Assembly: GCA_038064975.1 (NCBI GenBank)
Contig: JBBTRX010000007.1
Span: 1-57,025, forward strand
DNA length: 57,025 nucleotides
Direction: 5' to 3'
Origin: Patescibacteria group bacterium
GTDB lineage: Bacteria; Patescibacteriota; Minisyncoccia; UBA6257; 1-14-0-10-40-38
The notes under the pieces were generated by a model, which searched no databases, was not told the origin of the DNA, and was given only the letters and a program-made list of their open reading frames with translations. This document shows positions 25,961 through 55,300 of this stretch, in pieces; position 1 is the first letter of the stretch; the number at the start of each line of letters is the position of its first letter. The position numbers and the translations under genes are program-made.

Positions 25961-25977
25961 ATATTAACAATCTCTTC

Positions 25978-26085
25978 TGAAAAAGAAAAGAACCCGACAC
26001 CCCTTGCGGGATGCCGGGCAACTCTCTTGGACGAGAGTTTAGCTTCGTACAGCGAAGGAGGAGCCAAGACTGCACGAAGTGTTCC
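25978..26085 (-). ncRNA. Candidate ~105-nt three-hairpin sRNA with anti-Shine-Dalgarno loop
   Basis: cttcgtgcag-[tcttggCTCCTCCTTcg]-ctgtacgaag; aactctc/gagagtt; cccggcatccc/gggtgtcggg-T terminator; TTGACT -35 upstream with a weak -10. Confidence 0.55.
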
Positions 26086-26124
26086 TATACTTTCGCATAT
26101 TTTTACAAATAGTCAATCCCTTAT

Positions 26125-26651
26125 AAAAGAAGAGGCCCGACGTCGTGAGACGTCGGGCCAGACAAGTTTTGTTATGCCGAGAAGCGTAGGGTGAGCGCTC
26201 CTCTCCTGTCTATGGCACTTTTTTAAAGAGAGCTTATTCTGGTCTTCTCCTCACCAAAGCGAGGCGAATCCAACGAGAGTCCTTGATTCCACGACTGCTT
26301 ACTCGCCATCCGCCAATGGACACCGCATCGTCAAGATGACAATGGTTGTTGCGAATGAGTATGCGAAGCTTTTTCGTGTTCACCAGGTTCAGCCCTTAGC
26401 ACCTTTCGGCAAATGGAAGCTGCTGACGTAATACGAGGATACTACCTCTTTTCACGCCTCATCGCTCCATCTTTATCTCAACACCCTTGGGGGGTGCATT
26501 GATACGCAGACTTCACGCCTGCACCGTCTAGTCCCTTCAGACTCGTTTTCGGCGATGTTGTCGACCCCTCTATGAAGAGGGCCATCGCCTCAAGTACACC
26601 GTATGTTCCGCCATTGACCCTCGGGTCCAACCGAAAGCCATTGACGTTGCT
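26125..26651 (-). ncRNA. Candidate large (~525 nt) structured ncRNA
   Basis: TTGACA-16-TATAAT promoter with extended TG (26685-26658); terminator 26134-26159; no minus-strand ORF in the track; multiple hairpins. Confidence 0.65.
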
Positions 26652-26742
26652 TTTGTCATTATAGCATACCTATTATTCTTGTCAAGTGCCCCCCTAACTT
26701 TTAGAAGGTTGGGAGGGCAAGCCCCTTTTAAACCCGTAAAAA

Positions 26743-27852
26743 CTAGAGAATTACGCCTCCTCCCAACATTTCACCGGATTTGGCATAAAACACAGCAGAT
26801 TGCCCCTCGGCGATGAATTTTTGCGGAACTGCAAAAATTAGTTTAGCGCGTTGTCCGGCAGGGCCGGATCCGGCTTTGCCGGACAAGTTCGCTTTTGCGA
26901 GCGGTGCGCGATATCGCACTCGAGCGTAGATGGAGGTGGAAGTAGTTAATTGGTGGATGGGATTAATGAAGTGCACGTTCGTAAGTTCAACTTCTTTGCG
27001 ATACAACGCTTTATTATTTTCTCCTTCGGCAACGGTAATGGTATTTGTCGCCATATCTTTACTTGCGACATAGTATGGACTCCCTGGGTGCTCTTTGCCT
27101 GCCTGCACGTTCAAATGGAGACCCTTGCGCTGTCCGATAGTGTAATTAAAAATGCCGTGATGCTCCCCTACAACTTTTCCATCCGTTGCTTTAATAACTC
27201 CAGTTTGCGCAGGAATATATTCACGTAAAAAATCCTGGAGCGTAATCTGTCCTAAAAAACATACACCTTGAGAATCCTTTTTCTCGGCGTTGGGAAGTCT
27301 AAATTTCTTTGCAAGCTTTCTCACTTCTGGTTTCGTATAATTCCCGATTGGAAAAAGACAATGCTTTAACTGTTTCTGTGTAAGCGTCCAAAGAAAATAA
27401 CTTTGATCCTTGTTCTTGTCCTTAGCCTGATACAGTGAATAACCAATCTTTTTATTTTTGAGATTTGAGATTTGAGATTTAATGTAGTGTCCCGTTGCCA
27501 CATAGTCCGCCCCCATTCCGAGTGCGTGTTCTAAAAACAATCCAAACTTTATTTCCTTATTACACATCACATCCGGATTTGGAGTGATGCCCTTCCGGTA
27601 GCCTTCTACCATATATTCAACTACGCGCTTTTTATATTCATCCTCAAAATCTAGTGTATAGAAAGGAATACCAAGCGTTTCCGCCGCACGGCGAGCATCC
27701 TCCGCGTCTCGATCCGCGCACCCGTCTACGTTCCAGCATTTCAAGTGTATACCTACTACGTTATATCCTTGTTTTTTGAGCAATGCGGCGGCTACAGACG
27801 AATCTACTCCTCCGCTCATTCCAACAAAAACTGTTTTTTTCTTGCCTGCCAT
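26743..27852 (-). CDS. mnmA: tRNA 2-thiouridylase MnmA
   Basis: 'MSGGVDSSV', 'TPNPDVMCN', 'ATGHY', 'KDQSYFL', 'DSQGVCF'. Confidence 0.97.
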   Translation of the reverse strand: MAGKKKTVFVGMSGGVDSSVAAALLKKQGYNVVGIHLKCWNVDGCADRDAEDARRAAETLGIPFYTLDFEDEYKKRVVEYMVEGYRKGITPNPDVMCNKEIKFGLFLEHALGMGADYVATGHYIKSQISNLKNKKIGYSLYQAKDKNKDQSYFLWTLTQKQLKHCLFPIGNYTKPEVRKLAKKFRLPNAEKKDSQGVCFLGQITLQDFLREYIPAQTGVIKATDGKVVGEHHGIFNYTIGQRKGLHLNVQAGKEHPGSPYYVASKDMATNTITVAEGENNKALYRKEVELTNVHFINPIHQLTTSTSIYARVRYRAPLAKANLSGKAGSGPAGQRAKLIFAVPQKFIAEGQSAVFYAKSGEMLGGGVIL

Positions 27853-33984: not shown

Positions 33985-35229
33985 TTAGTTCCGTATGAAT
34001 GAGCGCATCATAGCGCGCGTTATGGTAATTGCGGAAAACATAGAAATAATTACCCCGATTAAAAGGGCGAGTGCAAATCCTTTGATAAACCCTGTCGTAA
34101 AATAGTACAAAATAACTGAAGTAATAATCGTCGTGATATTAGAGTCGCGAATAGAAAGCCAAGCTCGCTTAAAGCCGTCTTCAATAGCACCGAGACGAGA
34201 AACGCCCCGTTTCAATTCCTCCTTTGTGCGTTCAAAAATAAGAATGTTTGCATCCACCGCCATTCCGATAGAAAGCACGATGCCCGCGATACCGGCGAGC
34301 GTCATCGTGATGGAAAATATTTTAAACACTGCGAGGTTTAGTACTACGTAGATAACAAGCGCAAGAGCGGCAAAGACGCCGAACGTGCGGTAATAGAGGA
34401 TCATAAAGAGAGCGACAAATGCGGTACCAAGTGCGCCCGCGAATAATGTCTTCCTCAACGAGTCAGCTCCGAGCGTTGCGCCAATCGTCTGTTGAGTTAT
34501 GAGCGAAATCGGAGCAGGGAGCGCGCCTGCGTTAAAACGGGACACTAAGAGGCGAGCTTCGTCCGGCGTGAAGTTGCCAGTGATCTGCGCCTGCCCTCCG
34601 GAAATCTTCTGCTGTACAACGGGCGCGGTAATAAGATTGCCGTCAAGAAAAACAGCAATTTGTTTTCCAACATTCCGCTCGGTTAGCGTTTCAAAAATCT
34701 TTGCTCCCTCATCATTAAAATTAAGGCTTATCTGAGGCTTTCCGGTAACTTGGTCAAAGAAAACAGAGGCGCTGGTGATGTACCGGCCAGTAAGCTCCGT
34801 AGGGATAAAACTATCTTCTCCCGGAGTCTCTCCTTCCGCAGGAAGAACTTCTTTAACTTCCGCAAAGAGTAAAAAGGGAGTCTCTCCGATTTCATTAATT
34901 GCCTGTTCTACATCTTTAATGCCCGCGAGTTCAACGTTGATGCGATAAGAATCCCCGCTCCGTGCGGTAACGACTTGTGGCTCTGAAACGCCGAATAAGT
35001 TCACTCGCTTTTCCAGAACATCCCGAAGACCTTCCAATACCGTGGAACGATCAGCTTCCGAAACTGCACTCATATCCACTTCATACGCGAGGTGCGCGCC
35101 TCCCACCAAATCCAATCCTAAGCGCCACGGCAATACTTTGCCGATAAAGCTTGAGGGGTAAATAAAAAATCCCCCGACAACCGTGACAATCACGATAAGC
35201 ACCAGAATCCAGACAGAAGTTGATCTCAT
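33985..35229 (-). CDS. secD: Protein translocase subunit SecD
   Basis: 'LGLDLVGG', 'GVSEP', 'GMAVDANILIFER'. Confidence 0.96.
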   Translation of the reverse strand: MRSTSVWILVLIVIVTVVGGFFIYPSSFIGKVLPWRLGLDLVGGAHLAYEVDMSAVSEADRSTVLEGLRDVLEKRVNLFGVSEPQVVTARSGDSYRINVELAGIKDVEQAINEIGETPFLLFAEVKEVLPAEGETPGEDSFIPTELTGRYITSASVFFDQVTGKPQISLNFNDEGAKIFETLTERNVGKQIAVFLDGNLITAPVVQQKISGGQAQITGNFTPDEARLLVSRFNAGALPAPISLITQQTIGATLGADSLRKTLFAGALGTAFVALFMILYYRTFGVFAALALVIYVVLNLAVFKIFSITMTLAGIAGIVLSIGMAVDANILIFERTKEELKRGVSRLGAIEDGFKRAWLSIRDSNITTIITSVILYYFTTGFIKGFALALLIGVIISMFSAITITRAMMRSFIRN

Positions 35230-35350
35230 AATGTAAAAAGAATGGAACTATTATGCATGGGAGGAATGAAAATTGCAACTTCTTTCAAAAACAGAGCTGA
35301 AAGGTTTCCTTTAATACAACTAAATTTGACTCCAAGACGATGTAATGCAT

Positions 35351-35380
35351 AAAAAAGACCCGACGTTCGAAAACGTCGGG
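35351..35380 (-). terminator. GACCCGACGTT-family terminator, copy 1
   Basis: aaaaaagacccgacgttcgaaaacgtcggg. Confidence 0.75.
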
Positions 35381-35390
35381 ATAGTGATAC

Positions 35391-35714
35391 TCAGGTGTCG
35401 ACCATCCGGTCGGCCTGCTCCCATCCGGAGAGAATGATTTCAATACGGCGCTGCACTTGTTCGTGGGAGAAGCCAGCGGCCACGCGCAGAGATTCCAAAT
35501 CACTCTTCAAGGCGACCTCCATCCTCTTTTTCCAGCACTCATATTCCTTCGTACCCAGGATGGGATCGTTGCAATCAATACCGTCACTACTCTGACCGAT
35601 TTCCTGCTTCTCTGACCTAGACACAGCACACCTCCGAGAGAATATAGGTTTACTACCTGACTCATATGATGGAAACCTTTCTCCACGAAGTGAGGTCACG
35701 ACTTCAGAGATCAA
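35391..35714 (-). CDS. Hypothetical protein or fragment downstream of tRNA-Lys
   Basis: Stops just before a terminator; TTG start without a clear RBS. Confidence 0.4.
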   Translation of the reverse strand: MISEVVTSLRGERFPSYESGSKPIFSRRCAVSRSEKQEIGQSSDGIDCNDPILGTKEYECWKKRMEVALKSDLESLRVAAGFSHEQVQRRIEIILSGWEQADRMVDT

Positions 35715-35780
35715 CGCCCAGAAGTCTTTAGTGACTCTAATACTGCAATCTAGTCAGGTCGGCGGAAACATGATCTACGG

Positions 35781-35851
35781 TGCCCCCAAATGGAATCGAA
35801 CCATTGTCAACTGCTTAAAAGGCAGCTGCTCTACCATTGAGCTATGGGGGC
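35781..35851 (-). tRNA. tRNA-Lys(TTT)
   Basis: gcccccatagctcaatggtagagcagctgc-ctTTTaa-gcagt...ggttcgattccatttgggggca. Confidence 0.95.
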
Positions 35852-36019
35852 AATAATACAATGAAGAATAATGAAAAAACGAGTAAAAAGCAAGAATAAA
35901 AACTCTTTTTTATAATTAATTGAAAAACTATTTTATTAATAGATCATTGACGAATGAAATAAGAATGTGCTTTTTTGTTATTAGTATGTTCCAAAACCAC
36001 AACCAAGGAGACTCAAGCT

Positions 36020-36358
36020 GTGTTCCTACAACGCCTTCTTGCGCTTTGGGATAAGATCTTGTCGGAAATTTTGTATTCACCAATAGTCAATACTGGAAAT
36101 CAAAATGGAAAACATGAACGAACTTATCTCATTTACCCCGGTCGTTCTATTGCAATAGTAGGCACAGATGGAAAAATCCATACTATGACCGGCTTTTGGT
36201 CAGTGAATCACTATTATGATGGGAATAAACTTCTGAGGCGCATTCTTGCAAGAAAGGATCTTAAAACAGGAGAACGCCTGGCTACAGAAGAAGAGGTGTT
36301 GCAGTATCAAGAGAAGTTAAGAAAAGAATTTATTGGGGGTTTTGAAGATTATAATTAA
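36020..36358 (+). CDS. Hypothetical protein (start probably GTG 36020)
   Basis: AAGGAG RBS at 36005-36010; terminator at 36387-36413. Confidence 0.6.
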   Translation: MFLQRLLALWDKILSEILYSPIVNTGNQNGKHERTYLIYPGRSIAIVGTDGKIHTMTGFWSVNHYYDGNKLLRRILARKDLKTGERLATEEEVLQYQEKLRKEFIGGFEDYN

Positions 36359-36386
36359 CCTACGATCACACGAACCCTGTTCATAT

Positions 36387-36413
36387 CCCGATGTTTTCAA
36401 GCGTCGGGTTTTT
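36387..36413 (+). terminator. GACCCGACGTT-family terminator, copy 2 (diverged)
   Basis: cccgatgttttcaagcgtcggg-ttttt. Confidence 0.7.
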
Positions 36414-36543
36414 CTTTCTAAGCGCTTCTCGCTTTTTGTTAATAACATCCATGTATAGGAAGATGTAGTGCAGTCTGGAGTCTTCGTATTGGTTGCTATC
36501 TTTTTTATAATGCGACGAACTGCTTCCGTGATATTCTAAGGGT

Positions 36544-37152
36544 ATGCCACTAGAGTCACATCCAAAGCCAGCGCAGAAACCGATAGACTTCTCTCAAGAA
36601 AAGACTATTTCGAGTATCGTAAAGAGGGCTCTTCAGTATACGCAAATATCGCATGGATATGCCCTAGATCTTGGTTCCGGAGTTGGCCGTAATTCGTTTT
36701 TCCTAGCCGAGGAAGGATATTCAGTCGTTGCGGTTGACCAGGACTGCAATGTGCTAAGGAAACTTGCCCAAGAGGCACATCGACGAGAGTTGTTAATCGA
36801 AACCGTATGTACGGATATGACTTCATACAACGCTGACGCAGACCGATTCAACTTAGTTATCAGCATCAACACTCTTCACTTTCTCCCCAGAACAGACGTA
36901 TCAAAAGTTATCGCGCTAATGAAATCGAGCACTGCTATCGGAGGCATACACGCAGTTTCCGTACAAACTACACACAATAAACCGAATAAAGTGAAGCGAC
37001 TATTCGACGAAGGTGAGCTTAAATCGTATTACTCTGATTGGGAGATTCTCCACTACTCCGAGGATTGGGGAACTCCTTTTCGCCTAGCACCGCAAGGTCC
37101 AGTATTCACGAAACATCGGGCCGAAATAATCGCACGTCGGCGGGCAAAGTAA
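36544..37152 (+). CDS. TehB-like class I SAM-dependent methyltransferase
   Basis: 'ALDLGSGVGRNSFFLA..G..V.AVD', 'GELKSYY.DWEILHY'. Confidence 0.85.
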   Translation: MPLESHPKPAQKPIDFSQEKTISSIVKRALQYTQISHGYALDLGSGVGRNSFFLAEEGYSVVAVDQDCNVLRKLAQEAHRRELLIETVCTDMTSYNADADRFNLVISINTLHFLPRTDVSKVIALMKSSTAIGGIHAVSVQTTHNKPNKVKRLFDEGELKSYYSDWEILHYSEDWGTPFRLAPQGPVFTKHRAEIIARRRAK

Positions 37153-37200
37153 ATCTACAAGATACTTGACAAGCTAATAGCTGGATCGCTATACTATCAC

Positions 37201-37330
37201 CAGCATCAAGACATCTTTAGGGGTTTGGGATAGGACTCCGTGAGCCCCTTGGCTTACGAGCGTGGCAGTCGTACGACAGGTACCAGCAGTCAGCGCCTTC
37301 AATGAGCGTAGTCCTGAACCCCGCTTTTTT
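37201..37330 (+). ncRNA. Candidate ~130-nt sRNA
   Basis: TTGACA-18-TATACT promoter (37166-37195); ggggtttggga/tcctgaacccc closing stem then T tract; inner cgtgagcc/ggcttacg hairpin; no ORF. Confidence 0.6.
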
Positions 37331-37412
37331 ATGAACAGAAACTATACAGTATATTTAAAATAAAATTTTTAGCCGTCGTTCTCCATGCTAGTAAAATTTT
37401 TTTTATTGATTT

Positions 37413-37781
37413 TCATTCTTTCCACATCTCAATTTCTCCCCTCACAACTTCTTCAATGCTTCGTGAGCGACCAATAAAATAACCTTTGAATTTTGAATAG
37501 CTTTGATCGGGTTGCAAGACTCCGTTCGCATAATTCATAACGTCTGACTTTTCATTAACAATAGATATCTGAAGATATCCGCCTTCATCCATCAAACCAC
37601 GAACTTGGTATGATGCAACTTTTTCCACCTCATTGGTTTTTAATACTCCTTTAATCAAAGTGCCGTACTGGCTAAGTTTGCATTTGAATTGTTTTTCTCG
37701 CCGCGACTCCCCATAATGAACAACACCAAACCAAACTCCTCCAATTTTCTTTGGTGGTTTTTTGAATAAATTTCGTATCAT
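37413..37781 (-). CDS. AT-rich, beta-strand-rich hypothetical protein
   Basis: 122-aa ORF with GAGG RBS. Confidence 0.65.
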   Translation of the reverse strand: MIRNLFKKPPKKIGGVWFGVVHYGESRREKQFKCKLSQYGTLIKGVLKTNEVEKVASYQVRGLMDEGGYLQISIVNEKSDVMNYANGVLQPDQSYSKFKGYFIGRSRSIEEVVRGEIEMWKE

Positions 37782-37854
37782 ATATTTAACCCTCGTACTC
37801 CATGTATTTATTTTCTCACTATATTAAAAATGCATCAAATCTTATTTTCTTTTT

Positions 37855-38323
37855 AAAGAAAAAGACCCGACGTTCGAAAATGTCGGGTCGAGTGCGGGTC
37901 GCAGCCTCTTCCGTTGGTCAGCTCAAGGTCGAGCGACCGTTGCTGCAAGAAGACCCGTCATGGTCGGAGAGGTGAGGAGGACTGACGACATGAGACAGGA
38001 ACGCGTGGCCAGCAGGCGCTGACCACTGTTGTCAACAGGCGCGAACCAGTGATGGCGCGTCTCCTCCTCCGAGCCATGACGGGTGAAAGGTAGATGGAGC
38101 CCACTCCTTAGAGCGGGCTCCATTGGCAATCGAGACTCTCATTGTCCGATGAGTCTTCCCCGGCTTCTGCCAGAGTTGCTTGTGATCTCCTTTTACTCAT
38201 CCATCAAGCAGCTCATCCTTATCTCAAGGACAAGCGAGAGATGACTCACTACGAGACACGAAGAACTAGCGTGTACGGAACTACGAGAGTCAAGACTGCC
38301 ATCGAAAGGCGGCCCAAAGAACC
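37855..38323 (-). ncRNA. Candidate large (~470 nt) structured ncRNA
   Basis: TTGACA-18-TATCAT promoter (38359-38330); long helices; ends in GACCCGACGTT-family terminator copy 3 (37864-37889). Confidence 0.65.
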
Positions 38324-38403
38324 AAAATTATGATAGTAGATTTCTATGAATACTGTCAAGCAGCACTACTTATTGATTCAATAATATATGATACAATTTT
38401 TGT

Positions 38404-38649
38404 ATGACTACATGGACACACCCTGAAACACACTCTGGAGAAGTATTTTTTATCAATCTCACCTCTACAATGTTTGAGAAACTTTCTCTCCGTACAAAAC
38501 GGAAAGGAAATACCGCCCATGATGGCGAGGGTAATAAACTGGACCATGCCGATTGGTGGCCCGTATTTGTGCAGGTATCGGAACTTTCAGAACGCGAGCA
38601 AGATATTTCATCCGCACGACGGCAAATAAAAGAGATTTTATATAAATAA
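38404..38649 (+). CDS. Hypothetical protein (81 aa)
   Basis: ATG ORF ending at the hairpin agcccatctc-gtaa-gagatgggct. Confidence 0.45.
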   Translation: MTTWTHPETHSGEVFFINLTSTMFEKLSLRTKRKGNTAHDGEGNKLDHADWWPVFVQVSELSEREQDISSARRQIKEILYK

Positions 38650-38719
38650 AAAGAGCCCATCTCGTAAGAGATGGGCTTGGCTTTTCCAGCCGACACCGGA
38701 AACCCTTGTTCTTGAAGGG

Positions 38720-38806
38720 TTAGATGATGTCGTGCCAGGCCATGGCTGCGCTTGCGATTGTGATGCAAGCGGCCGCTGCGATGAAGAGTCGTGCGAAGTG
38801 CTTCAT
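38720..38806 (-). CDS. 28-aa peptide MKHFARLFIAAAACITIASAAMAWHDII (signal peptide plus 5 residues), below ORF-track cutoff
   Basis: GGAGG RBS at 38817-38821; n/h/c signal-peptide layout with A-M-A site; terminator ~38648-38680. Confidence 0.6.
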   Translation of the reverse strand: MKHFARLFIAAAACITIASAAMAWHDII

Positions 38807-38989
38807 CAGTTGTCGTCCTCCATGAAGAATCCTTCTTTCTGTGTTGTTCGTCACATAGCGTGTCCCTATCCTTGTGAGCCACCACTCTGCGACGATGCTC
38901 TTCTCATAATAAACATTATTATTGCAATATACCAGTGCGTTACTATACAGGTATTAAACAGTTTCTTTGTTGTCGAGTTTTCCCTTCTG

Positions 38990-39238
38990 CTAGATGTTTC
39001 CAGGCCAAGATGTCCGTCGACGCTCCCAGTCATTGTCTCCACCGATTATCAAGGGATTTTTTTGACGATAGCGTCGCTCTGCTTTCCCAGCTTGACGGAT
39101 AATATCCATTCGCGTGGGAGGAGACTTTCTATCCATTCTTGTTCTCCACGCCTCTCTTCGGCGATCTTTCTCAACCTCTCTCTCAGCTCGCCGAATAATA
39201 TCCATTAGCGGGAATGGCTTTTCATCCTTTTTCTTCAC
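38990..39238 (-). CDS. Small, very basic hypothetical protein with internal repeat (MDIIRRAE/MDIIRQAG)
   Basis: Purine-rich RBS, GTG start. Confidence 0.5.
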   Translation of the reverse strand: MKKKDEKPFPLMDIIRRAEREVEKDRRREAWRTRMDRKSPPTRMDIIRQAGKAERRYRQKNPLIIGGDNDWERRRTSWPGNI

Positions 39239-39316
39239 GAGGAAATCCCCCTTTCCCTTAGAATCTTGTCACCATGAAGTTCTCTCACAAATGCTTTTAA
39301 CAAGAGTATAAGAAAG

Positions 39317-39616
39317 TTATCGATCCAGTTGTCGGTCATGAGTCTCTCCGGTAAAACCTCTAGGACCATCTTTCCCATAAACCCTTGTGTACCATTGGAT
39401 GGATTCTAAATCATCAAAGAACCCCTGCATCGTGATGAGACGAGGAAGATGCTTCCCTTCTTGTTTGTCCCTTTCAACATCCTTTTCCTCCAGAAAAACA
39501 GTCTGACATTCAAGATCCGCCTCTTGTAAGGCCACCTTGGCTTGCTCACTGTCTGCGCCAGCATCAACGTAAAGCGTTCTCGGTTCGGATTTTCTCAATT
39601 TCCAGGTTGTTTCCAC
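39317..39616 (-). CDS. Small protein, possibly a Cys-motif-less glutaredoxin-like fold
   Basis: AAGGAG RBS before GTG 39616; 'TLYVD...S..AK..L' and 'LPRLIT..G' pattern. Confidence 0.6.
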   Translation of the reverse strand: METTWKLRKSEPRTLYVDAGADSEQAKVALQEADLECQTVFLEEKDVERDKQEGKHLPRLITMQGFFDDLESIQWYTRVYGKDGPRGFTGETHDRQLDR

Positions 39617-39691
39617 TAATCTCTCCTTTGTTAAAGAACGCAAAAAACCAGAAACTACCCTAAGGTTATTCTATCTTCTTTTATCTATAAA

Positions 39692-39860
39692 TGAAAAGAG
39701 CCACTAACCCCTGCGGGTTAGTGGCTGCGCTAGCCCCTTCCGAGGTAGCGGCTTAGAAAATGACCAACGGAAGGACTCTTTGTGCGGCCGCGATGAATCC
39801 CTGAGAATCAATCTTATGCTTTCGCACTCATCGACCTCTCAGCCGTTGGTTCAAGTACTA
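39692..39860 (-). ncRNA. Candidate ~165-nt three-way-junction RNA with terminator
   Basis: accaacgg/ccgttggt closing helix; ctgaga/tctcag arm capped by tgc-GAAA-gca; ggattc/gagtcc arm; agccactaacc/ggttagtggct terminator. Confidence 0.6.
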
Positions 39861-39945
39861 CCATACTACATCCATGCTGAAGCATTAGTAAATACTCTTA
39901 CAACACCGTTCTTGACATATTGATTTTATCTATGCGAGAATAACT

Positions 39946-40021
39946 CGACGGCTGGAGGTTGTCGTAGGGCGACCGCACATGAGCGCAGAAACCCTGACTC
40001 ATGACCAGCTGTCATTTTTTT
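39946..40021 (+). ncRNA. Candidate ~75-nt three-way-junction sRNA
   Basis: TTGACA at 39912 with TGn-GAGAAT; gacggctgg/ccagctgtc, ggttgtc/ggcgacc, catgag/ctcatg; T7 tail. Confidence 0.6.
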
Positions 40022-40081
40022 GCGCACTTAACCGTTTCGGTTTTAGAACCTGGTTGTACTCAATGATACCTTTCAGCTCAA

Positions 40082-40153
40082 ACTGACTACATAACTCTAT
40101 CAACCTGGCAAAAAGTGCATCCACAATTCGAGGTCTCCCTCGATACGGGGCAC
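40082..40153. repeat. 72-bp direct repeat, copy 1
   Basis: 65/72 identical to 42966-43037. Confidence 0.92.
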
Positions 40154-40228
40154 AGCCCATTTAGGACGTTTTGTTTTGCGTCAGTCGGCACAACTCGAGT
40201 ACTTAAATCGCCTCTGCTATACTAATAG

Positions 40229-40350
40229 CACTTGGTCCAATGGCAGAGCTCTAGAGCTCTGGAACTACCTGTGGCCACTTCAAAAGGTCCTCCCATTAGC
40301 CATTTTCAAGGCCGCCACTTCTCTCCGGAAGAGTGGCGGCCGCTTTTATT
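40229..40350 (+). ncRNA. Candidate ~120-nt sRNA
   Basis: TGn-TATACT at 40215-40223; cagagctc-ta-gagctctg palindrome; ggccgccact/agtggcggcc terminator; only a 4-codon ORF. Confidence 0.45.
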
Positions 40351-40445
40351 AAAACCTCTTGATTTCTAGTTGTGCAAACAAAAATAGCGGCTGAATCCAT
40401 TGTCGTAAGACGACAGATTCAACCGCTATGTAGCGCTGATAGAGA

Positions 40446-41699
40446 TCACGGTCGCGTAATGAGAGTCCACCTGCGCCCTGGTCGAAGCCATTGAAGCGCA
40501 TTACGAATATCACTCATTGTCACGCGCTCGAGATCGTTTCCGATTTCCGTGAGCGAAAGTATTCGCTGGTTCTCAGCAAGATCGATAAGCACACAGTCGC
40601 GAATACCATTGCCCGTCGAGTCAGTCATGAAGTTACCCGCGAGAGCTCGACGCTTGGTCTGCTCAAACAAGTCTTCACGTTCCCCCATAGAGGCAATGCA
40701 GATCTCGATGACTTCCTCGATCTCGTCGATCGCTTGGAGCGCCAACGCACCGCAGTTGATTGAGAACTCGTAGAAGTTCCGGAAATTGTACTGAGAACTA
40801 TTTATGGAGTAGCTCCACGCACGCCGCTCTCGCACCTCTTCGAAGAGCATTTCATTGAACATCTCCTTCAAGATACGAATCACTTGTTCATTGATGTTAC
40901 CTGGAATCTTCGCGACGCTTTGGTACGAACCAACCTCGATAGGAACCGTCATGTGTTTCGAGAATTCGAAGACGTGGCGAGTTTCTGACGGTGAGGCAAC
41001 ATCGAATGCTGGAGTCGGGAGCGGCGTTCGGCCCCCCTTCTTATTTGTCGCAAAAGGACTCTCGGAAAGAAGCTCGATGAGTTCTGACAACTGCATTCCG
41101 CCGACACCAACGATACTTATGTTCGCCGGCGCATAGTGTGTGTCGTAATGCGACTGCAAGTCGCCCTCTGTGATTCGTCCGATTGATTGGGGATTCCCAA
41201 GCGGGCGAGTGAATCTTTCGAGCCAATGCCCAGCATAGAGTGTCTTTTGCTTGCGCATATCCAGATCGTGCTTGAATATAATCGGATAGTGGCGATGAAA
41301 TTCGCCGACGATCACCTTACGCTCTCGCTCGATGCACTGTTCGAGTCGAGCCGACATTAACATGTGACCAAAAATTGAAAATGCTCCAGCCAGTATTTCT
41401 CTCTCTGTCGGAACAAAGAATCGATAGTGCGTATAAGCATAGCTAGTCGTACCGAGATTAACCTCTCCTCCGCAGTCCTCGAAGAATGCTTCCATTCTCT
41501 TCTTGGAGACATTGGTGTTCTCCAAAACGACATGTTCAACAAAGTGAGAGAGCCCTTCAAGGCCGACTGGATCATTTTCGGCTCCACTGTGAATCAGGAA
41601 TCCCATGGCTTCCCATGGACGTCCTGGCCAGTGAGCCCCATGCACCGTTAGTCCATTTGGCAAGGTCGCCGACTGGAATTCAGCGTACGGATCCCACAT
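40446..41699 (-). CDS. M16-family (insulinase-like) zinc peptidase
   Basis: 'GLSHFVEH' HxxEH, 'ERKVIVGE', 'LFEEVRERRAWSY'; GGGAGG RBS before ATG 41699. Confidence 0.9.
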   Translation of the reverse strand: MWDPYAEFQSATLPNGLTVHGAHWPGRPWEAMGFLIHSGAENDPVGLEGLSHFVEHVVLENTNVSKKRMEAFFEDCGGEVNLGTTSYAYTHYRFFVPTEREILAGAFSIFGHMLMSARLEQCIERERKVIVGEFHRHYPIIFKHDLDMRKQKTLYAGHWLERFTRPLGNPQSIGRITEGDLQSHYDTHYAPANISIVGVGGMQLSELIELLSESPFATNKKGGRTPLPTPAFDVASPSETRHVFEFSKHMTVPIEVGSYQSVAKIPGNINEQVIRILKEMFNEMLFEEVRERRAWSYSINSSQYNFRNFYEFSINCGALALQAIDEIEEVIEICIASMGEREDLFEQTKRRALAGNFMTDSTGNGIRDCVLIDLAENQRILSLTEIGNDLERVTMSDIRNALQWLRPGRRWTLITRP

Positions 41700-41855
41700 A
41701 GAGAACCTCCCTTTCTTGAGAGATATAGTTTTGGGAAAGAACGAACTTACTGTCATATAACAGCACCTACTCTCAAATATGTCAATCACGAACTCAAGCC
41801 AACAAACACCAAGAGCTTTGGGACACAAACAAAGCCCCCAACGGCTGTGCACGTC

Positions 41856-42311
41856 TTAGAGTAAGTGTAGGAGCTCCGTCAACGAGTGAATCACGTGCAT
41901 AGGGCTACCGGTATGGTCGTCAGGGAGTTCATTGCTGAACTTCCCGTTCTGAAACCAGATGGTCTGCGCTCCGTTTTCGTTCCCCCACTTGATTCCGCGA
42001 CACACCCGATCATCCACAATAACGACTTCGTCTCCCCGTAGATCGAGATCGTTCAATGTCGCGCGATAGCTCGCATCTTTGTCGTTTGCCGTGAAGCGAA
42101 TCGAGGAAAATAGTTGTTCGATTGAATGACTGCGGAGCACGCCCATCCTCGCCGCAACCTCCTGGTCGGGCGCTAGAGAGACAATGGCTAGCTTGTAGCG
42201 AGACGAAAGGTGGTCGAGTACAGCTTTTGTATCGGAAAAGAGAGTCTCCTTGTCGCGATCATAGAGTGTTCGTCCCCAATCAAAGATGATTGCCTTGTGT
42301 TGTCGTGGCAT
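41856..42311 (-). CDS. HAD-superfamily hydrolase
   Basis: 'IIFDWGRTL', 'AIVS', 'IVDDR..GIK.G...G.QTIW'. Confidence 0.85.
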   Translation of the reverse strand: MPRQHKAIIFDWGRTLYDRDKETLFSDTKAVLDHLSSRYKLAIVSLAPDQEVAARMGVLRSHSIEQLFSSIRFTANDKDASYRATLNDLDLRGDEVVIVDDRVCRGIKWGNENGAQTIWFQNGKFSNELPDDHTGSPMHVIHSLTELLHLL

Positions 42312-42510
42312 GAACTTAGACTACCACTGCAAGGATCGCGGTCAATACGAGGTTGACTGCAAACAACATTCTCCATGACAAGTAGTTGACAGATTTTTAT
42401 TAAAATTATATAATGATACGTATACATTTGACCTTTAGCAGTTGAATCCTCGTTGGCATTCGAGAGCGCGGCAATTTCTGTTTCGTTCTCGAGATGTCAA
42501 GGAGGCATCC

Positions 42511-42741
42511 ATGAAGACCGTGGCACGGGTGGATACCACCCAACCTTCCGATTCCTGTGCAGCAGAATTTCTTCGCGACTGTGAGAGGAAGCGCGGACCG
42601 ATCGACTACTATCCTCAAGGCACCCAGACAATGATCTTGGGTACCGAGCAATACTGCTACCTGTTCCTTCGTTGTGCTGAGTTCCTTGTCATCCGACCGG
42701 TCCGGTTCATCGAGCGGCAGTTCATGAAGTTTGCAGGGTAA
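42511..42741 (+). CDS. Hypothetical protein (76 aa)
   Basis: TTGACA-17-TATAAT promoter (42386-42414); AAGGAGG RBS; terminator at 42754. Confidence 0.7.
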   Translation: MKTVARVDTTQPSDSCAAEFLRDCERKRGPIDYYPQGTQTMILGTEQYCYLFLRCAEFLVIRPVRFIERQFMKFAG

Positions 42742-42753
42742 CGATAGCTAATC

Positions 42754-42784
42754 AAAGACCCGACGTTCAACGTCGGGTCTTTTT
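42754..42784 (+). terminator. GACCCGACGTT-family terminator, copy 4
   Basis: aaagacccgacgttcaacgtcgggtctttt. Confidence 0.75.
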
Positions 42785-42965
42785 CTTACTCTCATCATGC
42801 TCAAGTCCCCGAATGTTCGGGGACTTCATATTGGGTTGGAGCACGATTCTACACAGGTTCAGGGACGTTGTGGACTTCAGGGAGGTTGGAGCGAAATGGA
42901 TCAAGCCACCCTTCCCTTCTCTACGGTTACCTACTTGTTGCGCTCGAGGAAACTTCTGATCTCCG

Positions 42966-43037
42966 ACTGACTACATAACTCAACCAACCTCTCAAAGAGT
43001 GCATCCAAAGTTCGAGGTCTCCCTCGATACGGGGCAC
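42966..43037. repeat. 72-bp direct repeat, copy 2
   Basis: 65/72 identical to 40082-40153; last 27 bp identical. Confidence 0.92.
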
Positions 43038-43106
43038 TAAAATCTTTGCTTTTTCGCCTTAATTTCTATAGGATTTCGTAAGCACATTCCCAAAGGAGGG
43101 ATCCCC

Positions 43107-43337
43107 ATGCCCATCACTGCCTTTCTAGTGAGACTCCCCTTCATATTCTTACTTGCGCTTATCGGCGTTTGTGCCCCTATGCACGATCGCGTGTATTATA
43201 TGATGCAAGGTTTAGAAGGGCATATTCTGGAACATGACAATGAAGTAATCATAAGACGAAAACTACGTCCATTGAACCGTTTTGAAAAGTGGCTTTTCGG
43301 GCCTATCGTGGCGTCTGAACACAAAAGAAAGGGATAA
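43107..43337 (+). CDS. Small hypothetical protein with N-terminal hydrophobic segment
   Basis: AAGGAGG RBS. Confidence 0.6.
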   Translation: MPITAFLVRLPFIFLLALIGVCAPMHDRVYYMMQGLEGHILEHDNEVIIRRKLRPLNRFEKWLFGPIVASEHKRKG

Positions 43338-43613
43338 AAAAGTCATGTCTCCGCTCCCCCAGGAAGTAGAACGAGTGAAAGCCAATATCTCACATATTCC
43401 CGGAATCAGAGTTTTGCCTTCAATTGGTGAGTGGATATTGGTAGCGACTAGCGAGTCGCGGAAGTTCTGCGAGAAGCTGTACAAGCTTGATAATAAACCA
43501 CCTCCCCGAGCAAATTTTTGCTCGGTTTTTTTATTTCATTAATATTTCACAACAATAATAGTTATATTAAAAACAGTTCTCTGTTCTTCTACAACTCAAA
43601 GGAGGTAACTTAA

Positions 43614-43889
43614 ATGTCACCCGAAGAAAAAGAAAGGGCAATAGATCTATTCAAGGCAATTTCAGGTCTTTCCCTTACCACCGAGCCCGTAATTGCCAAC
43701 TGGATTGATGCAGTCGTCGGGCAACCAGAGAAAATTGAAAAATATGTGAATTTCCGACTTGAGCAAAAAGTTGTAGTTGTTCCCCGCCAAGGACCTGGCG
43801 GAGTGATCAGCATCAGAATCTCGGACGAACCAAGAGAAAACGACACAACGGCCACTCTACTTCGCGAAGCAATCCAGCAAGCTGCATAG
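43614..43889 (+). CDS. Hypothetical protein (91 aa)
   Basis: AAGGAGG RBS; gagcg...cgctc-T terminator. Confidence 0.7.
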   Translation: MSPEEKERAIDLFKAISGLSLTTEPVIANWIDAVVGQPEKIEKYVNFRLEQKVVVVPRQGPGGVISIRISDEPRENDTTATLLREAIQQAA

Positions 43890-43926
43890 CCGATCCGAGC
43901 GTCTCTCTTTGTGAGAGCGCTCTTTT

Positions 43927-45024
43927 TTATTCCAATTCTCCTTTTAAGTCTTCAAGAAGCTTTTTCGCGTTCGCAGTTAATTTCTTCGGGAATTTAATAT
44001 CCATATCCACGAGTAAGTTACCGCGAAGCGGACTCCCCAATTTCGGCATACCTTCGCCGTTTACTACAATTGTTTTTCCAAAAATAAAGTTAGGAGGAAC
44101 GTCAACAGAAATTTTTCCGCCTGAGAGCGTTTTGACTATAACTTTTCTTTCCAAGAGAATGTCCGCAAGATTTGCGTCGTGCCGGATACGCACGTCGTCC
44201 CCTTCGCGTGTAAATACCGGATGCGGTTTTACCCGAATACGAATATAGAGATCTCCTTCGGAAGCACTGTTCGGACCTGCTTCTCCGCCGCCCTGGATTT
44301 TTACGAGCTGGCCGTCATGCACGCCTGCGGCAATGCCCACCTGCACAGTTTTTTCTCCTTGAACACGTCCTGCTCCGGAACATTTGCCGCAAATTTTATT
44401 TGGAATCTTGCCTTGGCCCAAACACTTCGCACACGGCTTTACCTGCGCGAAATTACCGAAGAATGTTCTCCGGGACTCCTGAATCTCTCCTCTGCCGTCG
44501 CACGCAGAACACTCCGTAAACCCTTTCGCTTCAAAATGTCCTTTTCCCTTACACTCCGTGCAAGCGATAAATGTTTTAAATGTAATCGGCTTCGTAACAC
44601 CGCGAAACGCGTCTTCAAGCGCGATTTCCTGCACAAGCTCTAAATCAGATCCGCGTTCATACGCACGCCGTTTCCGCTTTACGCCCATACCTTCAAAAAA
44701 GGCGTCAAAAATATCCCCTAAATTTCCTAGGTCATCAACATTCACAGAATCAAACCCTTCTCCGAAATTGCGGAAATCAAAACCGCCTTGGCCGCCGCCT
44801 CCCATATTGCCGCCTTCAAACACACGGCCAAAACGGTCGTACTGGGCGCGCTTTTCTTTATTGCTTAAAATTTGATACGCTTCATTAATTTTTTTAAACA
44901 TGCCGTCATCCCCCCCGGATTTATCCGGGTGGTACTTGTGGGCAAGCTTGCGATAAGCGCGCTTAATCTCCTCTTCAGTCGCGCCTTTCTGGACGCCTAA
45001 AATTTTGTAGTAATCTTCTGCCAT
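43927..45024 (-). CDS. dnaJ: Chaperone DnaJ
   Basis: HPD J-domain, G/F region, four CxxCxGxG repeats. Confidence 0.97.
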
Positions 45025-45034
45025 AATGGCGTAT

Positions 45035-45961
45035 TTAATTAATAACGATTATTTCCTGGTCAACGGATTCCCGATGGATGTGGATAGCGTCCATACCTAC
45101 TAACACCTTAAAGACCATAAACGCAACTCCTACGATAAGCCAATTGAGGAAAAATGCAATGCTTTTCACGAATCCGAAGATAATGACGCCAATAGCAACG
45201 AACGCAACTGCTTTGAATGTTGGAGGGAGGGTTATGAATTTCCCGATCGTAATTTTATAGAGCACATCTAGAAACTTGTCTCCCGGACCAACAATGAACC
45301 CGAAGTTTTTGTGAATAGAATCCGCAAGAGAATCAATGGAGTCAGCAATCGCCTGTTCGGACTCTTCTCCAAATCGCGATTCAAAAATTGCACGTAAAGC
45401 GTCGTGGAATGACCCCTCAGACGAAAACCCCGGAGCAAGCTTCACGATAATCCCGTCAAAAGTTTTAAAGAACGTGGAGAACGTATCCTTTGATGAAGTA
45501 AATTGCCCGGCGCTCAACACCGTCATGAGCGTGAGCGTGATAAAAATAGCGATACCCGTCATAGCAAACGATTCAATGCGCGGAGCAATGCGGAAAAATT
45601 TTATTTTCACCGAATTTTCCACCAGCCGCCTTCCTGCGACGAAACTCATCCACAAAAAAACCGTAAGCAGTGCTCCCCCAATCGCTGCCTGGAGCGTAAA
45701 GCGCTGTTCAATCGGTATCCACACCATGATCGCCTGTAAGAGCGCGAACATTCCCAACATGCTCCGCGACGTGATGATCATGGGCTGAAGCACGACGACG
45801 GCAAGCCAGAGGATCGCCGCAAAAGACGTCATCACGAGCGATCCGAAGGAAGGATCTACAAAAACATTCCGAAGTGTGTAGCCAAAAAACAAAGCGAAGA
45901 GAGCACCGATACCGCCCAATATTGCTATAACCCGAGGATACCTGCGAGATGGTTCTGGCAT
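45035..45961 (-). CDS. Multi-pass membrane protein between dnaK and dnaJ
   Basis: About 7 hydrophobic segments; likely start is ATG 45961. Confidence 0.75.
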
Positions 45962-46021
45962 GGGAGTTATTATCTCCCAGTATACCATTTCGCCCGCCCT
46001 CACACGAAAGCCGTGCAATCT

Positions 46022-52341: not shown

Positions 52342-55300
52342 TTATGGAATTGCATCATAAAAGAGATTGGCGATATTTTGGGTCGCAAGATCTAAAATAC
52401 CCGTTTGAGGAAGTCCATTTTTTTTCTGAAAACGTTTTACTGCGTCCGCAGTGGCACTTCCATATTGCCCAGTAATAGATCCTTCAGGGTATATAAGCTT
52501 ACTTTGCGCAAGATAGAGCTGTAAGAGCGTAACCGCTTCTCCGGAAGAACCGATAGTGAGAATGCTCGTGAACGGCTTCCCACCGGAAGCAGATCCGCCC
52601 GCGCAACCCGCGGCATTCATATATTTCCTGGTAGAAGCGCCGAAGAATCCAGTACCTCCTCCTGCCGGAATGCCGACTGGAATCAGAATTTCTGCCGCAT
52701 TTGCGTTTTGCAATGCCTTTACCGTCTTTGCTGTAAGCGATCCGAAGAATGGCGTTTCACTTCCTGCTGAGCCTGGTCCCGAGAGAGCAATGGTAAATCC
52801 TTTTTGATTCAGGCACTGTTGAAGCACTTTAACATCGGCACCAGTGTCGCCGACTTTCAAACTGCGCGTGAAGATAAAGGATGCCGTTCCCCCACCTCCT
52901 ACATTTTTTGTCGTGACTTCAACAACGTTTGCGTATCCGGAATTTCCATTCGCATTGTACGCACGAATGCGGAAGTAGTACTTCGTGTTAGCGGTAAGAT
53001 TTTTCTCGTTCCAGAAGTAATAATGCGGAGGTAATGTCTTAATTTCCGTAAACGTCGTACCATTTGTACTCATCTCTAGTTTGTATCCTGATTGTCCAAC
53101 AGTTCCACCCTGCCAGAATAGACGAACAGTGGTCGTATTTATCGCATACGCAACAAGCTGAGAAGGAGGTCCTGGAGGATCTTCTGGAGGCGGAGGAGGA
53201 TTCCCTGTATCAAGAGGAGTAGTAACCGTTATAGTGTTCGTATAATCCGAATTCCCCGCGCTATTGAATGCCCGTACGCGATACCAGTATGTTGTTTCGC
53301 CCTGCACGGTAACGTCATTGAAGAGCCCTTTATTTGCGAACGATGTATTAATTTCAGAAAATCCAGAAGATGACGAGCTCGTACTGCGCTCAATCTTGAA
53401 GCCATCTTCATTATCCGCATTATCAACCCATGTTAATTGGACATGTTTTGCTTGAATTGCCGCAGCAGCGAGATTTGATGGAGCGATAGGAATGACTTGC
53501 CCCGACGTGTCCATATCATTATCAAGAATACTGATCGTCGCAGTATTCACTGATCCGATACTGTATGCGGGATTCGTACTCAAGGACAACATAACCGTTT
53601 CCGTCGGCTCTTCAAAAAGATCATCAATCGGCGTTATGGTGATTGAAAGAGATGTCTGTCCCGCTGGAATTGTTTTAGGAGACGTTATTAATTGATAATC
53701 CACGCCATTTGTCGCCGTTCCTGAAACAGTGAAGTAGACTGGAAGATTGGCTGTTATTAATCCCGTGCGCGAGACGGTAAATGTCCCGGTATTACTATTT
53801 GCTTCTCCAGCAAACCCGTCAGAAGCATCAATGATAACTACTGGTAATTCAGGTCCGGAACAATCTTGAGCAGTAAACGAACCCACGATGGAATAAAGTT
53901 GTGTAGCAACATAAGATATACGCGCTTGATACGTTTGATTTGCGATAAACCCGAGCGGTTGAGTAATAACGGTTGGCGTAAAGTCATCAGGAGCAACCGT
54001 TGAAACAGTCCCTGTTGGAATAAATTTATACCAGAAACCGTTTACCCAATTATTATCATTATCAATATCAACGTAATATCCTTGAACGCCATTCGTGCTT
54101 GTGCCACCATCCGTCCATGCGACTGTTGCTTTAGAATTTGCACCCGAACAGAACGGAGTTATCGTCGGAGCCGGAGGAGAAGTAGCCACATCATTATCAG
54201 TGATAGTTACGGATCCTGTATCAGCAGAACCGATCGTGTACTCTGCGCTTGGTGAAAGCGTAAGCGTTGCACTTTCCGTAGACTCTACGAGAGCATCGTC
54301 AATAGGCGTCACAACAACCGTCGCAGACGACTGCCCCACAGGAATAATTCTTGAAGACGAAAGTAATTGATAATCAGTGCCGTTTGTCGCGTTCCCTGAA
54401 ATTGTGAAATTGACTGTAAGCGAACTTGTTGTCACTCCTGTGCGAGAGATAGTAAAGGTTCCTGCATCTATTCCGGTTTCGGATGCCGTAGCATCAGTCG
54501 GAGTAAGCGTAATCGTTGGCAAGGAAGGAGCGCTGTCGTCGTCAAAAATATCAACTGTCCCAGAGCTCTGCCCGAGTACGTAGCCAGATCCAGAAGTAAG
54601 TGTCACAGCAACCGTTTCCGTTCCTTCAATAGACGTATCATTGATTGGATTTACTATAATAGTTGCCGAAGAAGCGCCAATAGGAATAACTTTTGGAGAA
54701 ACTACTTGCTGATAATCAGATCCATTAGTAGCCGTTCCATTAATCGTGAAATTAACCGTAAGAGCACTTGTGGTTGGACCTGTACGCGTAACCGTAAAGA
54801 CGGCGGGGTCAGGCCCGAGCTCAAACGCAGTTGGGTCAGTGACAGAAAGAGAAACTGTTGGTGTAGATGGTGGAGCATCATCATCCACAATATTAACTGT
54901 TCCCGTGTTTTGCGTTCCAATACTATAATTTGCGCTTGTTACCAATGTCAGAATTGCAATCTCTGTCGCTTCACTAATTGCATCGTCAAGTGGCGTAACC
55001 GTGAGAGTAATAGACGTCTGGTTAATAGGAATAGTAATTGACGACCCAATTGATTGATAATCAGTTCCATTCGTTGCAGTTCCTGATATTCCTATATTAA
55101 CCACAAGAGCATTTGTAGTTGCACCTGTACGCGTGATTGTGAAAACTCCCGTATTTGTACCCGGCTCCGCAGCATTACCATCTGTGGTTGTAATCGTTAC
55201 TGTTGGGAGTGTGGGTGCTGATACTTCATAGAGATATACTATTTTCGTTACCTGATTCGCATTAACAGCAACTGATGTTACACAGAACGTACCGTCGCAT

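Follow-up and report, generated by a model that had tools for sequence, protein, structure and literature searches.

A lineage-specific patchwork of small genes and candidate structured RNAs between dnaJ and tRNA-Lys in a groundwater Patescibacteria genome

Results

The secD-dnaJ interval

We have analysed a stretch of 57,025 nucleotides (nt) from a Patescibacteria group bacterium (assembly GCA_038064975.1, contig JBBTRX010000007.1, positions 1-57025; C7 in our numbering, C1, C2 and C3 being other contigs of the same genome), which will be called the window, and in particular the interval between secD and dnaJ (35230-43926), which contains a tRNA-Lys gene. A preliminary description of the window had pointed to a dense array of autonomous mini-transcription units in this interval, many of them non-coding, in a genome presumed to be reduced. 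The genome is indeed small (782 kb in 11 contigs, 44% G+C, with an estimated completeness of 98%) and the array was also recovered, as the part between tRNA-Lys and dnaJ (35852-43926) appears to be assembled from some 20 short units that are mainly monocistronic, the majority with a predicted sigma-70-type promoter, an intrinsic terminator, or both. The inventory comprises 8 credible protein genes, about 6 doubtful micro-ORFs (open reading frames), two decayed paralogous gene fragments and five ORF-less units.

Coding density is low in the interval, which spans 8.7 kb or 1.1% of the genome. We used a dicodon coding model trained on 351 long ORFs of the same genome, which separates true gene pieces from wrong-frame ORFs. 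According to this crude gene call, confident ORFs cover 47% of the interval versus 85% genome-wide (64% of the interval if all doubtful micro-ORFs are counted), and it contains 5 of the genome's 36 longest uncalled gaps (at least 622 nt). Moreover, a strict promoter scan (TTGACA-N16-18-TATAAT, at least 11 of 12 positions) placed 3 of the genome's 54 sites here, the maximum for any 8.7-kb segment (genome mean 0.62; 2.4% of segments reach 3), and strong terminators (stem of at least 8 bp) number 6, with a genome mean of 1.8 and 3% of segments reaching 6. The interval is thus within the top 2-3% of the genome for both near-consensus promoters and strong terminators.

The ORF-less units of the island, together with a second cluster located elsewhere in the window, are the following:

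37166..37330, plus strand: unit A, with promoter TTGACA-18-TATACT at 37166-37195 (11/12), a ~125-nt ORF-less candidate RNA at 37203-37330 and a U-run
37856..38359, minus strand: unit B1, with promoter TTGACA-18-TATCAT at 38359-38330 (11/12) and a ~460-nt ORF-less candidate RNA at 38325-37856
Parts of B1, minus strand: 5' domain 38325-38100, family hairpin 38084-37953, a 3' hairpin, and terminator 37887-37866
39699..39857, minus strand: unit C, a ~160-nt ORF-less stretch with a 12-bp terminator at 39726-39699
39912..40023, plus strand: unit D, with promoter 39912-39941 (10/12 with TG) and a ~75-nt candidate RNA at 39948-40023
40225..40350, plus strand: unit E, an ORF-less stretch with a strong terminator at 40313-40345; weak RNA-gene candidate
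26134..26685, minus strand: second cluster, with a 12/12 promoter with TG at 26685-26658, a ~517-nt ORF-less candidate RNA and a terminator at 26159-26134

The B family

Fold stability was expressed as z-scores against dinucleotide shuffles, and a control set of 31 coding windows of 250 nt, drawn at random from this genome, gave 0.17+-1.19 with a minimum of -2.25. Unit B1 reached -7.04, or -6.67 without its terminator (0 of 100 shuffles as stable), and its two halves are each very stable, with -5.65 for the 225-nt 5' domain and -5.11 for the other half. BLAST revealed a 74% identical copy of the B1 3' half at C2:837-1050, within a locus that we call B2 (C2:838-1064) and that has its own TTGACA promoter-like site, assigned by eye. 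When B1 and B2 were aligned, 3 of the 58 predicted pairs carried compensatory changes, 10 carried one-sided changes to or from G-U and none was broken. A covariance model built on these two sequences (R1) then found B3 (C2:92916-93100; 45 bits, E about 1e-12), which has the same hairpin with the same terminator directly after it.

The core of the module is an irregular hairpin of 125-132 nt followed by the shared terminator, and the three copies are ~70-74% identical. They have in common an invariant 11-bp basal stem, in which ACYCGUCAUGG pairs with CCAUGACGGGU, as well as an internal loop that is conserved around UGUUG(A)CAAC. In the inner stem (7-8 bp) the sequence is entirely different from copy to copy, yet each version pairs in the printed single folds; the three-sequence alignment misregisters B3 at this stem and for that reason counts 4 of its 7 pairs as broken in one sequence. 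Folded singly, B1, B2 and B3 gave z-scores of -7.0, -4.3 and -5.3. Furthermore, the terminator-bearing strand folds into the more stable hairpin in all three copies, by 2.0-5.6 kcal/mol, which argues for structure at the RNA level and not at the DNA level. Each hairpin also contains an AUG-led open frame of 39-55 codons whose AUG lies inside the 11-bp stem. Because these AUGs have no Shine-Dalgarno sequence and the frames downstream differ between copies, we take the frames to be by-products of the palindrome. A tRNA gene is found no more than 2.1 kb from each of the three copies, and 16% of the genome is as near to one, although this proximity is only suggestive since the threshold was picked after seeing the data.

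No relative of the module was detected outside this genome. Rfam gave no match at the B2 and B3 loci, the R1 model matched none of 60 related genomes and none of 80 metagenome loci at E<=0.01 (best 11.5 bits, E 0.12), and an exact 21-base B pattern had no match in genome contigs or in viral contigs. Two looser patterns returned candidates that we rejected. The stem-pair pattern occurs in 8 alphaproteobacterial loci, where it belongs to unrelated GC-rich palindromic repeats (R1 at most 18 bits on both strands), and the stem-plus-loop pattern occurs in 14 loci from diverse phyla, none of which scored with R1 at the pattern site. The alphaproteobacterial repeats (L102-L109) are themselves multi-copy elements of ~112-126 nt, nested in longer palindromes and sharing only the 11-nt stem sequence with B; the four loci scanned among the eight (L102, L104, L106 and L109) have no Rfam family for them. 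Within the window, an R1 match at 35349-35442 (25 bits) is essentially the terminator alone, and the stretch 35385-35775 was discarded as a further B-like RNA given its fold z-score of -0.76. On the evidence of these comparisons, B1-B3 can be proposed as a structured-RNA family new to Rfam, lying in a variable island of an otherwise ordinary kind.

Units A, C, D and E

Of the five units that had been described as having promoter, fold and terminator with no ORF, three stand (A, B1 and D, at 37.2, 37.9-38.3 and 39.95 kb), whereas the one at 39.7 kb (C) has a weak promoter and the one at 40.2 kb (E) has neither promoter nor a structured body. We consider A, B1 and D to be well-supported candidates for RNA genes and C and E weak ones. 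Unit A folds on the plus strand with a z-score of -2.6, and its 103-nt branched core (37220-37322), which closes just ahead of the U-run, reaches -3.45 (0 of 200 shuffles as stable). The minus strand gives +0.30, an asymmetry that matches the direction of promoter and U-run. For unit D the predicted fold is a three-way junction with a closing stem of 9 bp, after which come seven U residues; the unit overlaps the 3' end of the fragment ORF (39999-40160) in antisense orientation. Unit C has a z-score of -2.98, or -2.61 without its terminator (2 of 200 shuffles); its promoter (~8/12) was seen by eye only and was missed by the scan, so that C may be the 3' tail of an upstream transcript. Finally, unit E falls from -3.08 with its terminator to -0.68 without it (48 of 200 shuffles), and the scan found no promoter for it.

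The ORFs inside A, B, C, D and E all have negative dicodon scores, from -1 to -13. An Rfam scan of the window found the tRNA as the sole match at the gathering cut-off, with nothing credible at E<=5 over 35000-44200. 6S RNA had no match in the genome, and RNase P RNA and transfer-messenger RNA (tmRNA) are located elsewhere in it. Several of the units are best read as putative non-coding structured RNAs of no described family.

A lineage-specific island at a conserved site

The order dnaK - 327-aa gene - dnaJ - tRNA-Lys(UUU) - secD - secF is kept in all four of the metagenome loci with both dnaJ and secD (L020, L024, L043 and L063), in which the dnaJ-secD interval measures ~1, ~6, 3.1 and ~0.5 kb, respectively, versus 8.7 kb here. 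In six loci around tRNA-Lys from relatives in GTDB, the tRNA gene abuts secD in five and lies ~0.7 kb from dnaJ in the sixth. The contents of the interval are a different matter: none of 15 island proteins matches any of the 80 metagenome loci, and the larger intervals of the relatives are occupied by different genes (AbiEii-like protein, ThyX, M50 peptidase, cyclophilin). At the DNA level, the matches among 41 genomes of the family and order are limited to tRNAs and to a part of the M16 peptidase gene. For comparison, the best metagenome match of DnaJ is 63% identical. The absence of the island genes from relatives, together with the varying contents of the interval, indicates that this DNA is specific to the lineage and that the site it occupies changes its contents from one lineage to another. 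In addition, the island genes score only 0.14-0.29 per codon on the dicodon model versus 0.43 for dnaJ, which would fit foreign or young DNA. The 8.1 kb from tRNA-Lys to dnaJ (35852-43926) thus has what would be expected of an accessory island beside a tRNA, namely its absence from relatives at a conserved site, and we take it as probably being a lineage-specific one in an otherwise conserved neighbourhood.

The usual machinery of mobility was not detected. No integrase or recombinase domain was found in any scanned island ORF (Pfam, PHROGs and NCBIfam), as had been stated before, nor any direct repeat of the tRNA end of att type within the region, and pairs of attC-like cores (RYYYAAC ... GTTRRRY) number 0 there versus 1.7+-1.9 in shuffles. 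We also examined contigs of a second study (4 runs), whose listed long pieces have 0 differences from our sequence in 31 of 32 cases and 1 in the other. Since they are letter-identical, no shuffling is visible, and the cassette-like reordering that the preliminary description proposed to look for did not appear. One run has a single joint with a 21-letter side that skips 37857-43923, which we set aside as unreliable.

Protein genes and remnants

The remaining features, in order along the interval, are:

35359..35380, minus strand: intrinsic terminator, one of 7 near-identical CCCGACG...CGTCGGG hairpins
35391..35714, minus strand: doubtful 107-aa ORF between tRNA-Lys and secD; dicodon score 4.7, ambiguous; no family match and no ribosome-binding site identified
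35779..35851, minus strand: tRNA-Lys(UUU), conserved landmark of dnaJ-tRNA-Lys-secD; Rfam tRNA match
36020..36358, plus strand: gene for a 112-aa protein of a conserved family without known function; ribosome-binding site, GTG start; dicodon 29; terminator 36387-36408
36544..37152, plus strand: TehB-like S-adenosylmethionine-dependent methyltransferase; Pfam PF03848, 1e-26; NCBIfam matches under equivalog cut-offs
37413..37781, minus strand: 122-aa orphan protein gene; dicodon 28.7; Atlas model confident (pTM 0.76)
38404..38649, plus strand: 81-aa orphan ORF, divergent from B1; dicodon 16.3; no family match
38806-38720, minus strand: 28-aa hydrophobic peptide ORF; GGAGGA ribosome-binding site; 10-bp terminator 38677-38654; dicodon -3.5 (uninformative at this length)
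38990..39238, minus strand: doubtful 82-aa very basic ORF; internal 33-nt direct repeat; ribosome-binding site; dicodon -1.7
39317..39643, minus strand: 98-108-aa orphan protein gene; dicodon 20.3; ribosome-binding site; weak promoter (9/12) at 39697-39668
39999..40160, minus strand: 53-aa ORF, probable fragment, with a paralogous copy at 42934-43037
40446-41852, minus strand: M16 peptidase; Pfam and NCBIfam matches; HxxEH motif present
41856-42311, minus strand: HAD-family hydrolase; Pfam and NCBIfam matches
42511-42741, plus strand: doubtful 76-aa Cys-rich ORF; AAGGAGG site; dicodon -6.3, atypical composition; around it, also on the plus strand, a perfect 12/12 promoter (42386-42414) and a 13-bp terminator (42754-42782)
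43107-43337, plus strand: doubtful 76-aa micro-ORF with an N-terminal hydrophobic stretch; ribosome-binding site; dicodon 3.9
43345-43542, plus strand: doubtful 65-aa micro-ORF; ribosome-binding site; dicodon -7.4; terminator 43506-43525
43614-43889, plus strand: 91-aa orphan protein gene; ribosome-binding site; dicodon 26.3; itself the only match; terminator 43903-43917

Eight of these are credible as protein genes, on the strength of their dicodon scores, their family matches or both: the methyltransferase, the M16 peptidase, the HAD hydrolase, a conserved small protein and four orphans. PHROGs and NCBIfam scans of 16-17 island ORFs gave matches only for the methyltransferase, the HAD hydrolase and the M16 peptidase. 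The conserved small protein (36020-36358) has relatives in 26 representative clusters at E<=1e-3 (18 at E<=1e-10), mostly of 85-146 aa with in addition a 57-aa fragment and a 661-aa protein, and these 26 related clusters back its GTG start and length. By contrast with this family, the 122-aa orphan (37413-37781) found itself as its sole match among 5.8 billion proteins. With one genome from another family of the same order, the M16 gene shares 67% DNA identity. The tRNA-Lys, the M16 peptidase and a peptide gene had all been named in the preliminary description and were found here, the last of them as the 28-aa ORF.

The 53-aa ORF has a different character. Positions 40050-40153 within it and the copy at 42934-43037 share 82% DNA identity, with the same frame open and protein-like substitutions. 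The former has no ribosome-binding site and the latter no start codon, and both are probably decayed paralogous gene fragments. No longer homologue of the 53-aa fragment was matched, which is weak evidence. The possibility that the units were decayed coding fragments, or that their folds were no more stable than shuffles, had been foreseen as an argument against the array. It holds for the 53-aa ORF with its copy and for the fold of unit E, but not for A, B1 and D, whose folds beat shuffles.

Outside the island, a 327-aa gene between dnaK and dnaJ (window positions 45035-46018, minus strand) is an uncharacterised member of the chaperone operon with no Pfam, PHROG or NCBIfam match, kept at the same position in 27 of the 80 metagenome loci with 25-34% identity. 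The window ends carry very long ORFs, both on the minus strand: 348-6410 (2020 aa) and 52342-56958 (at least 1538 aa).

The second cluster and structured intergenic DNA across the genome

A second cluster had been noted at 25.6-26.7 kb, and we found at 25.5-26.7 kb the 12/12 promoter and the ORF-less stretch of ~517 nt, with a z-score of -4.30 (-4.11 for its 5' half), followed by three minus-strand terminators, two of them at 26019-25992 and 25657-25635 in addition to the one listed above, a layout similar to that of B1. Rfam gave nothing credible over 25400-26900. A comparable ORF-less unit of ~330 nt lies at C2:92555-92885 (minus strand; L100:1140-1470), directly downstream of B3 and tRNA-Arg, with a TTGACT-17-TATAGT promoter assigned by eye and a terminator; its 5' and 3' ends close, its z-score is -5.8 and it has no Rfam match. 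Neither the DNA of this unit nor that of the 1.2-kb second cluster is conserved in 40 relatives.

We have also surveyed 167 gaps of at least 200 nt in 200-nt windows against 900 coding windows (control minimum -3.2). In 80 of these gaps a window was more stable than the coding expectation by more than 3 standard deviations (sd), and in 50 by more than 4 sd, a count that takes in the tRNA, rRNA, RNase P and tmRNA genes; B1 ranked sixth. By this measure, and with that reservation on the count, structured non-coding DNA is abundant for so small a genome, as the preliminary description had remarked of RNA density. Many of the other stable gaps are short repeat families. In fact, the genome contains several families of short intergenic repeats (~40-140 nt, 5-10 copies each), which are among its most stable intergenic folds (for example at C2:90805, 124499, 70148, 169118, 169393 and 204860, C3:101 and C1:19549), as well as a cluster of perfect palindromes at C2:203126-203901. 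Another motif of ~36-39 nt, at 25533-25570 of the window and immediately after a gene whose end is at 25531, has 8 or more further occurrences in the genome with identities of 84-93% over 28-43 nt, and there is also one exact match of 21 nt. The terminator hairpin CCCGACG...CGTCGGG with its U-run is present near letter-identical at 7 sites, five of them in the window (26136, 35359, 36387, 37866, 42759) and two elsewhere (C2:848 and C2:92926), behind unrelated genes and behind B1-B3.

Absence of a recognisable signal recognition particle

Unit A was considered as a signal recognition particle (SRP) RNA and rejected, as the genome lacks Ffh/FtsY domains and A matches neither RF00169 nor RF01854. 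Neither an SRP54-type GTPase domain nor an Ffh M domain turned up: across the whole genome there was no PF02978, PF00448, RF00169 or RF01854 match, and the best score for FtsY (TIGR00064) was 10.9 bits versus a cut-off of 260.7; SecY (333 bits) and SecDF are present. RF00169 was found in none of 31 genomes (this one and 30 relatives of the order), and PF00448 gave only P-loop-sized partial matches of at most 23.6 bits in 11 of the 31, with the positive controls of the survey being found in 12-14 of 14 genomes. If SRP had been lost throughout the order, this would be unusual for free-standing bacteria. We found no report of SRP loss in Patescibacteria in the literature searched, and in the available part of PMC8321541 they appear once, as the source of a SecA sequence.

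Discussion

The island between tRNA-Lys and dnaJ is probably a patchwork of independently transcribed mini-genes, acquired by or born in this lineage, in which A, B1 and D would be expressed as stable RNAs and the B RNAs would act in trans. In this model, the near-consensus promoter of B1 would direct the synthesis of a ~460-nt transcript, and units A, B1 and D would give rise to stable small or mid-sized RNAs. The invariant 11-bp basal stem of the B RNAs, together with their conserved internal loop, could then serve to bind a protein or another RNA, a proposal that is a guess from the pattern of conservation.

Several observations weigh against this interpretation. The region is present in public runs of two studies, all of them groundwater metagenomes and none of RNA, and the promoter consensus is the E. 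coli-like one of sigma-70, assumed for this organism. In a looser scan the numbers of signals in the interval are within chance (15 promoters versus 12.6+-3.3 and 14 terminators versus 9.0+-3.5), so that the signal given by the strict scan lies in the quality of the sites and not in their number. Compensatory changes, the mark of a structured RNA family, are present in B1-B3, with a support limited to three paralogues of one genome, and as GTDB representatives include no genome of the same genus, the covariation is confined to this one; units A, C, D and E are single-copy and have no comparative support. Because structured intergenic DNA and short repeats are common throughout the genome, structure alone is not special to the island. 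Unit A may also terminate the methyltransferase gene, or be only the 3' end of that transcript, and D could be just a bidirectional terminator, as it folds equally well on both strands (z-scores of -3.60 on the plus strand and -3.64 on the minus strand).

These points lead to the alternative that deserves most attention, and which we regard as possible while still rather unlikely, that the ORF-less units are not RNA genes at all. The B hairpins would then be selfish or neutral palindromic repeats of the ERIC or MITE type with a terminator attached, and the others promoters, untranslated regions and terminators left by decayed island genes. The ends of the B hairpin do form a perfect 11-bp inverted repeat, as in selfish palindromic repeats, its three copies are dispersed and all close to tRNA genes (under the threshold chosen post hoc), a single terminator hairpin is reused at 7 sites, and short intergenic repeat families abound in the genome. 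Inside the island, decayed paralogous gene fragments do occur, E is unstructured and C lacks a good promoter. However, the inner stems of the B copies differ fully in sequence and yet all of them pair, the copies are only ~70-74% identical with no target-site duplication visible at their flanks, B1 has its own 11/12 promoter and a structured 5' domain of 225 nt, and G-U pairs favour the terminator-bearing strand. The likeness to known palindromic repeats (ERIC, REP, Correia, RPE and MITE-like elements) is real, as the B modules are imperfect palindromes of ~125-130 nt with perfect inverted ends, dispersed between genes, and such repeats can be terminators or RNA hairpins; they differ from them in being only three, in their degree of divergence, in their covarying inner stems and in the strong promoter of B1.

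It is much less probable that the ORF-less units encode unannotated microproteins and that the island is made purely of tiny protein genes. Many neighbouring units are indeed micro-ORFs with ribosome-binding sites, and every B hairpin has its AUG-led frame, but these AUGs are buried in the basal stem with no Shine-Dalgarno sequence, the frames are not the same between copies, and the negative dicodon scores extend to all five units. Least probable of all is the coordinated mobile system of RNA and peptide cassettes, integron-like or for host interaction, that was suggested in the preliminary description: the small units are dense, their content orphan, the terminator module reused and the interval variable between lineages, but they face both ways, each with its own promoter and with no common architecture or relationship, the sequence is identical in the second study, and both attC-like core pairs and an integrase or recombinase domain are missing.

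The patchwork can be compared with several known systems. It resembles tRNA-adjacent genomic islands and plasticity zones, which are also lineage-specific DNA at a conserved tRNA site with atypical codon usage, orphans, remnants and small RNA-like units; here no integrase or direct repeat of the tRNA end was found, and the island is 5' of tRNA-Lys instead of at the usual 3' side. Integron arrays and CALINs share with it a run of very short, mostly orphan units with hairpin-forming spacers and no integrase nearby, but the island has no attC cores and its units carry promoters and terminators of their own in both orientations. The 28-aa hydrophobic peptide ORF with its strong ribosome-binding site recalls type I toxin-antitoxin systems, as does, elsewhere in the island, the candidate small RNA D antisense to the 3' end of a small ORF; unlike in those systems, the ORF opposite D is hydrophilic and has no ribosome-binding site, and the promoter scan found no antisense promoter or RNA overlapping the 28-aa peptide gene. 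Finally, the predicted ORF-less transcripts (330-520 nt), whose folds are predicted to be very stable and multi-domain and some of which lie near tRNAs, are reminiscent of the large ornate RNAs (OLE, GOLLD, ROOL and HEARO). GOLLD and ROOL tend to lie near tRNAs. The transcripts predicted here differ from these families in having no Rfam match even at E<=5 and in being confined to one genome, without the deep covariation that defines those families.

A stronger version of our interpretation would be that the ORF-less units, that is, the B family, A, D, the ~517-nt RNA and the ~330-nt C2 RNA, are functional lineage-specific structured RNAs, several of them of ribonucleoprotein or ribozyme scale. 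We hold this to be unlikely at present, but its consequences would be considerable. To our knowledge, what is known of ultra-small groundwater bacteria comes almost entirely from protein genes, and there is practically no description of their non-coding RNAs; in the accessible portion of the literature on non-coding RNAs, we found none naming the Candidate Phyla Radiation.

From the comparison with relatives, the dnaJ-tRNA-Lys-secD interval emerges as a hot spot of gene turnover in this family. The locus yields coordinates for candidate RNA genes with promoter, fold and terminator, and one paralogous family with internal covariation. If the RNAs are not functional, it would illustrate clearly the way in which even a streamlined genome accumulates orphan genes, remnants and palindromic modules. 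If they are functional, they would be new RNA families, and such a set of functional RNAs in a 0.78-Mb genome apparently without SRP would point to an unusually RNA-rich repertoire for regulation or host interaction in ultra-small groundwater bacteria.

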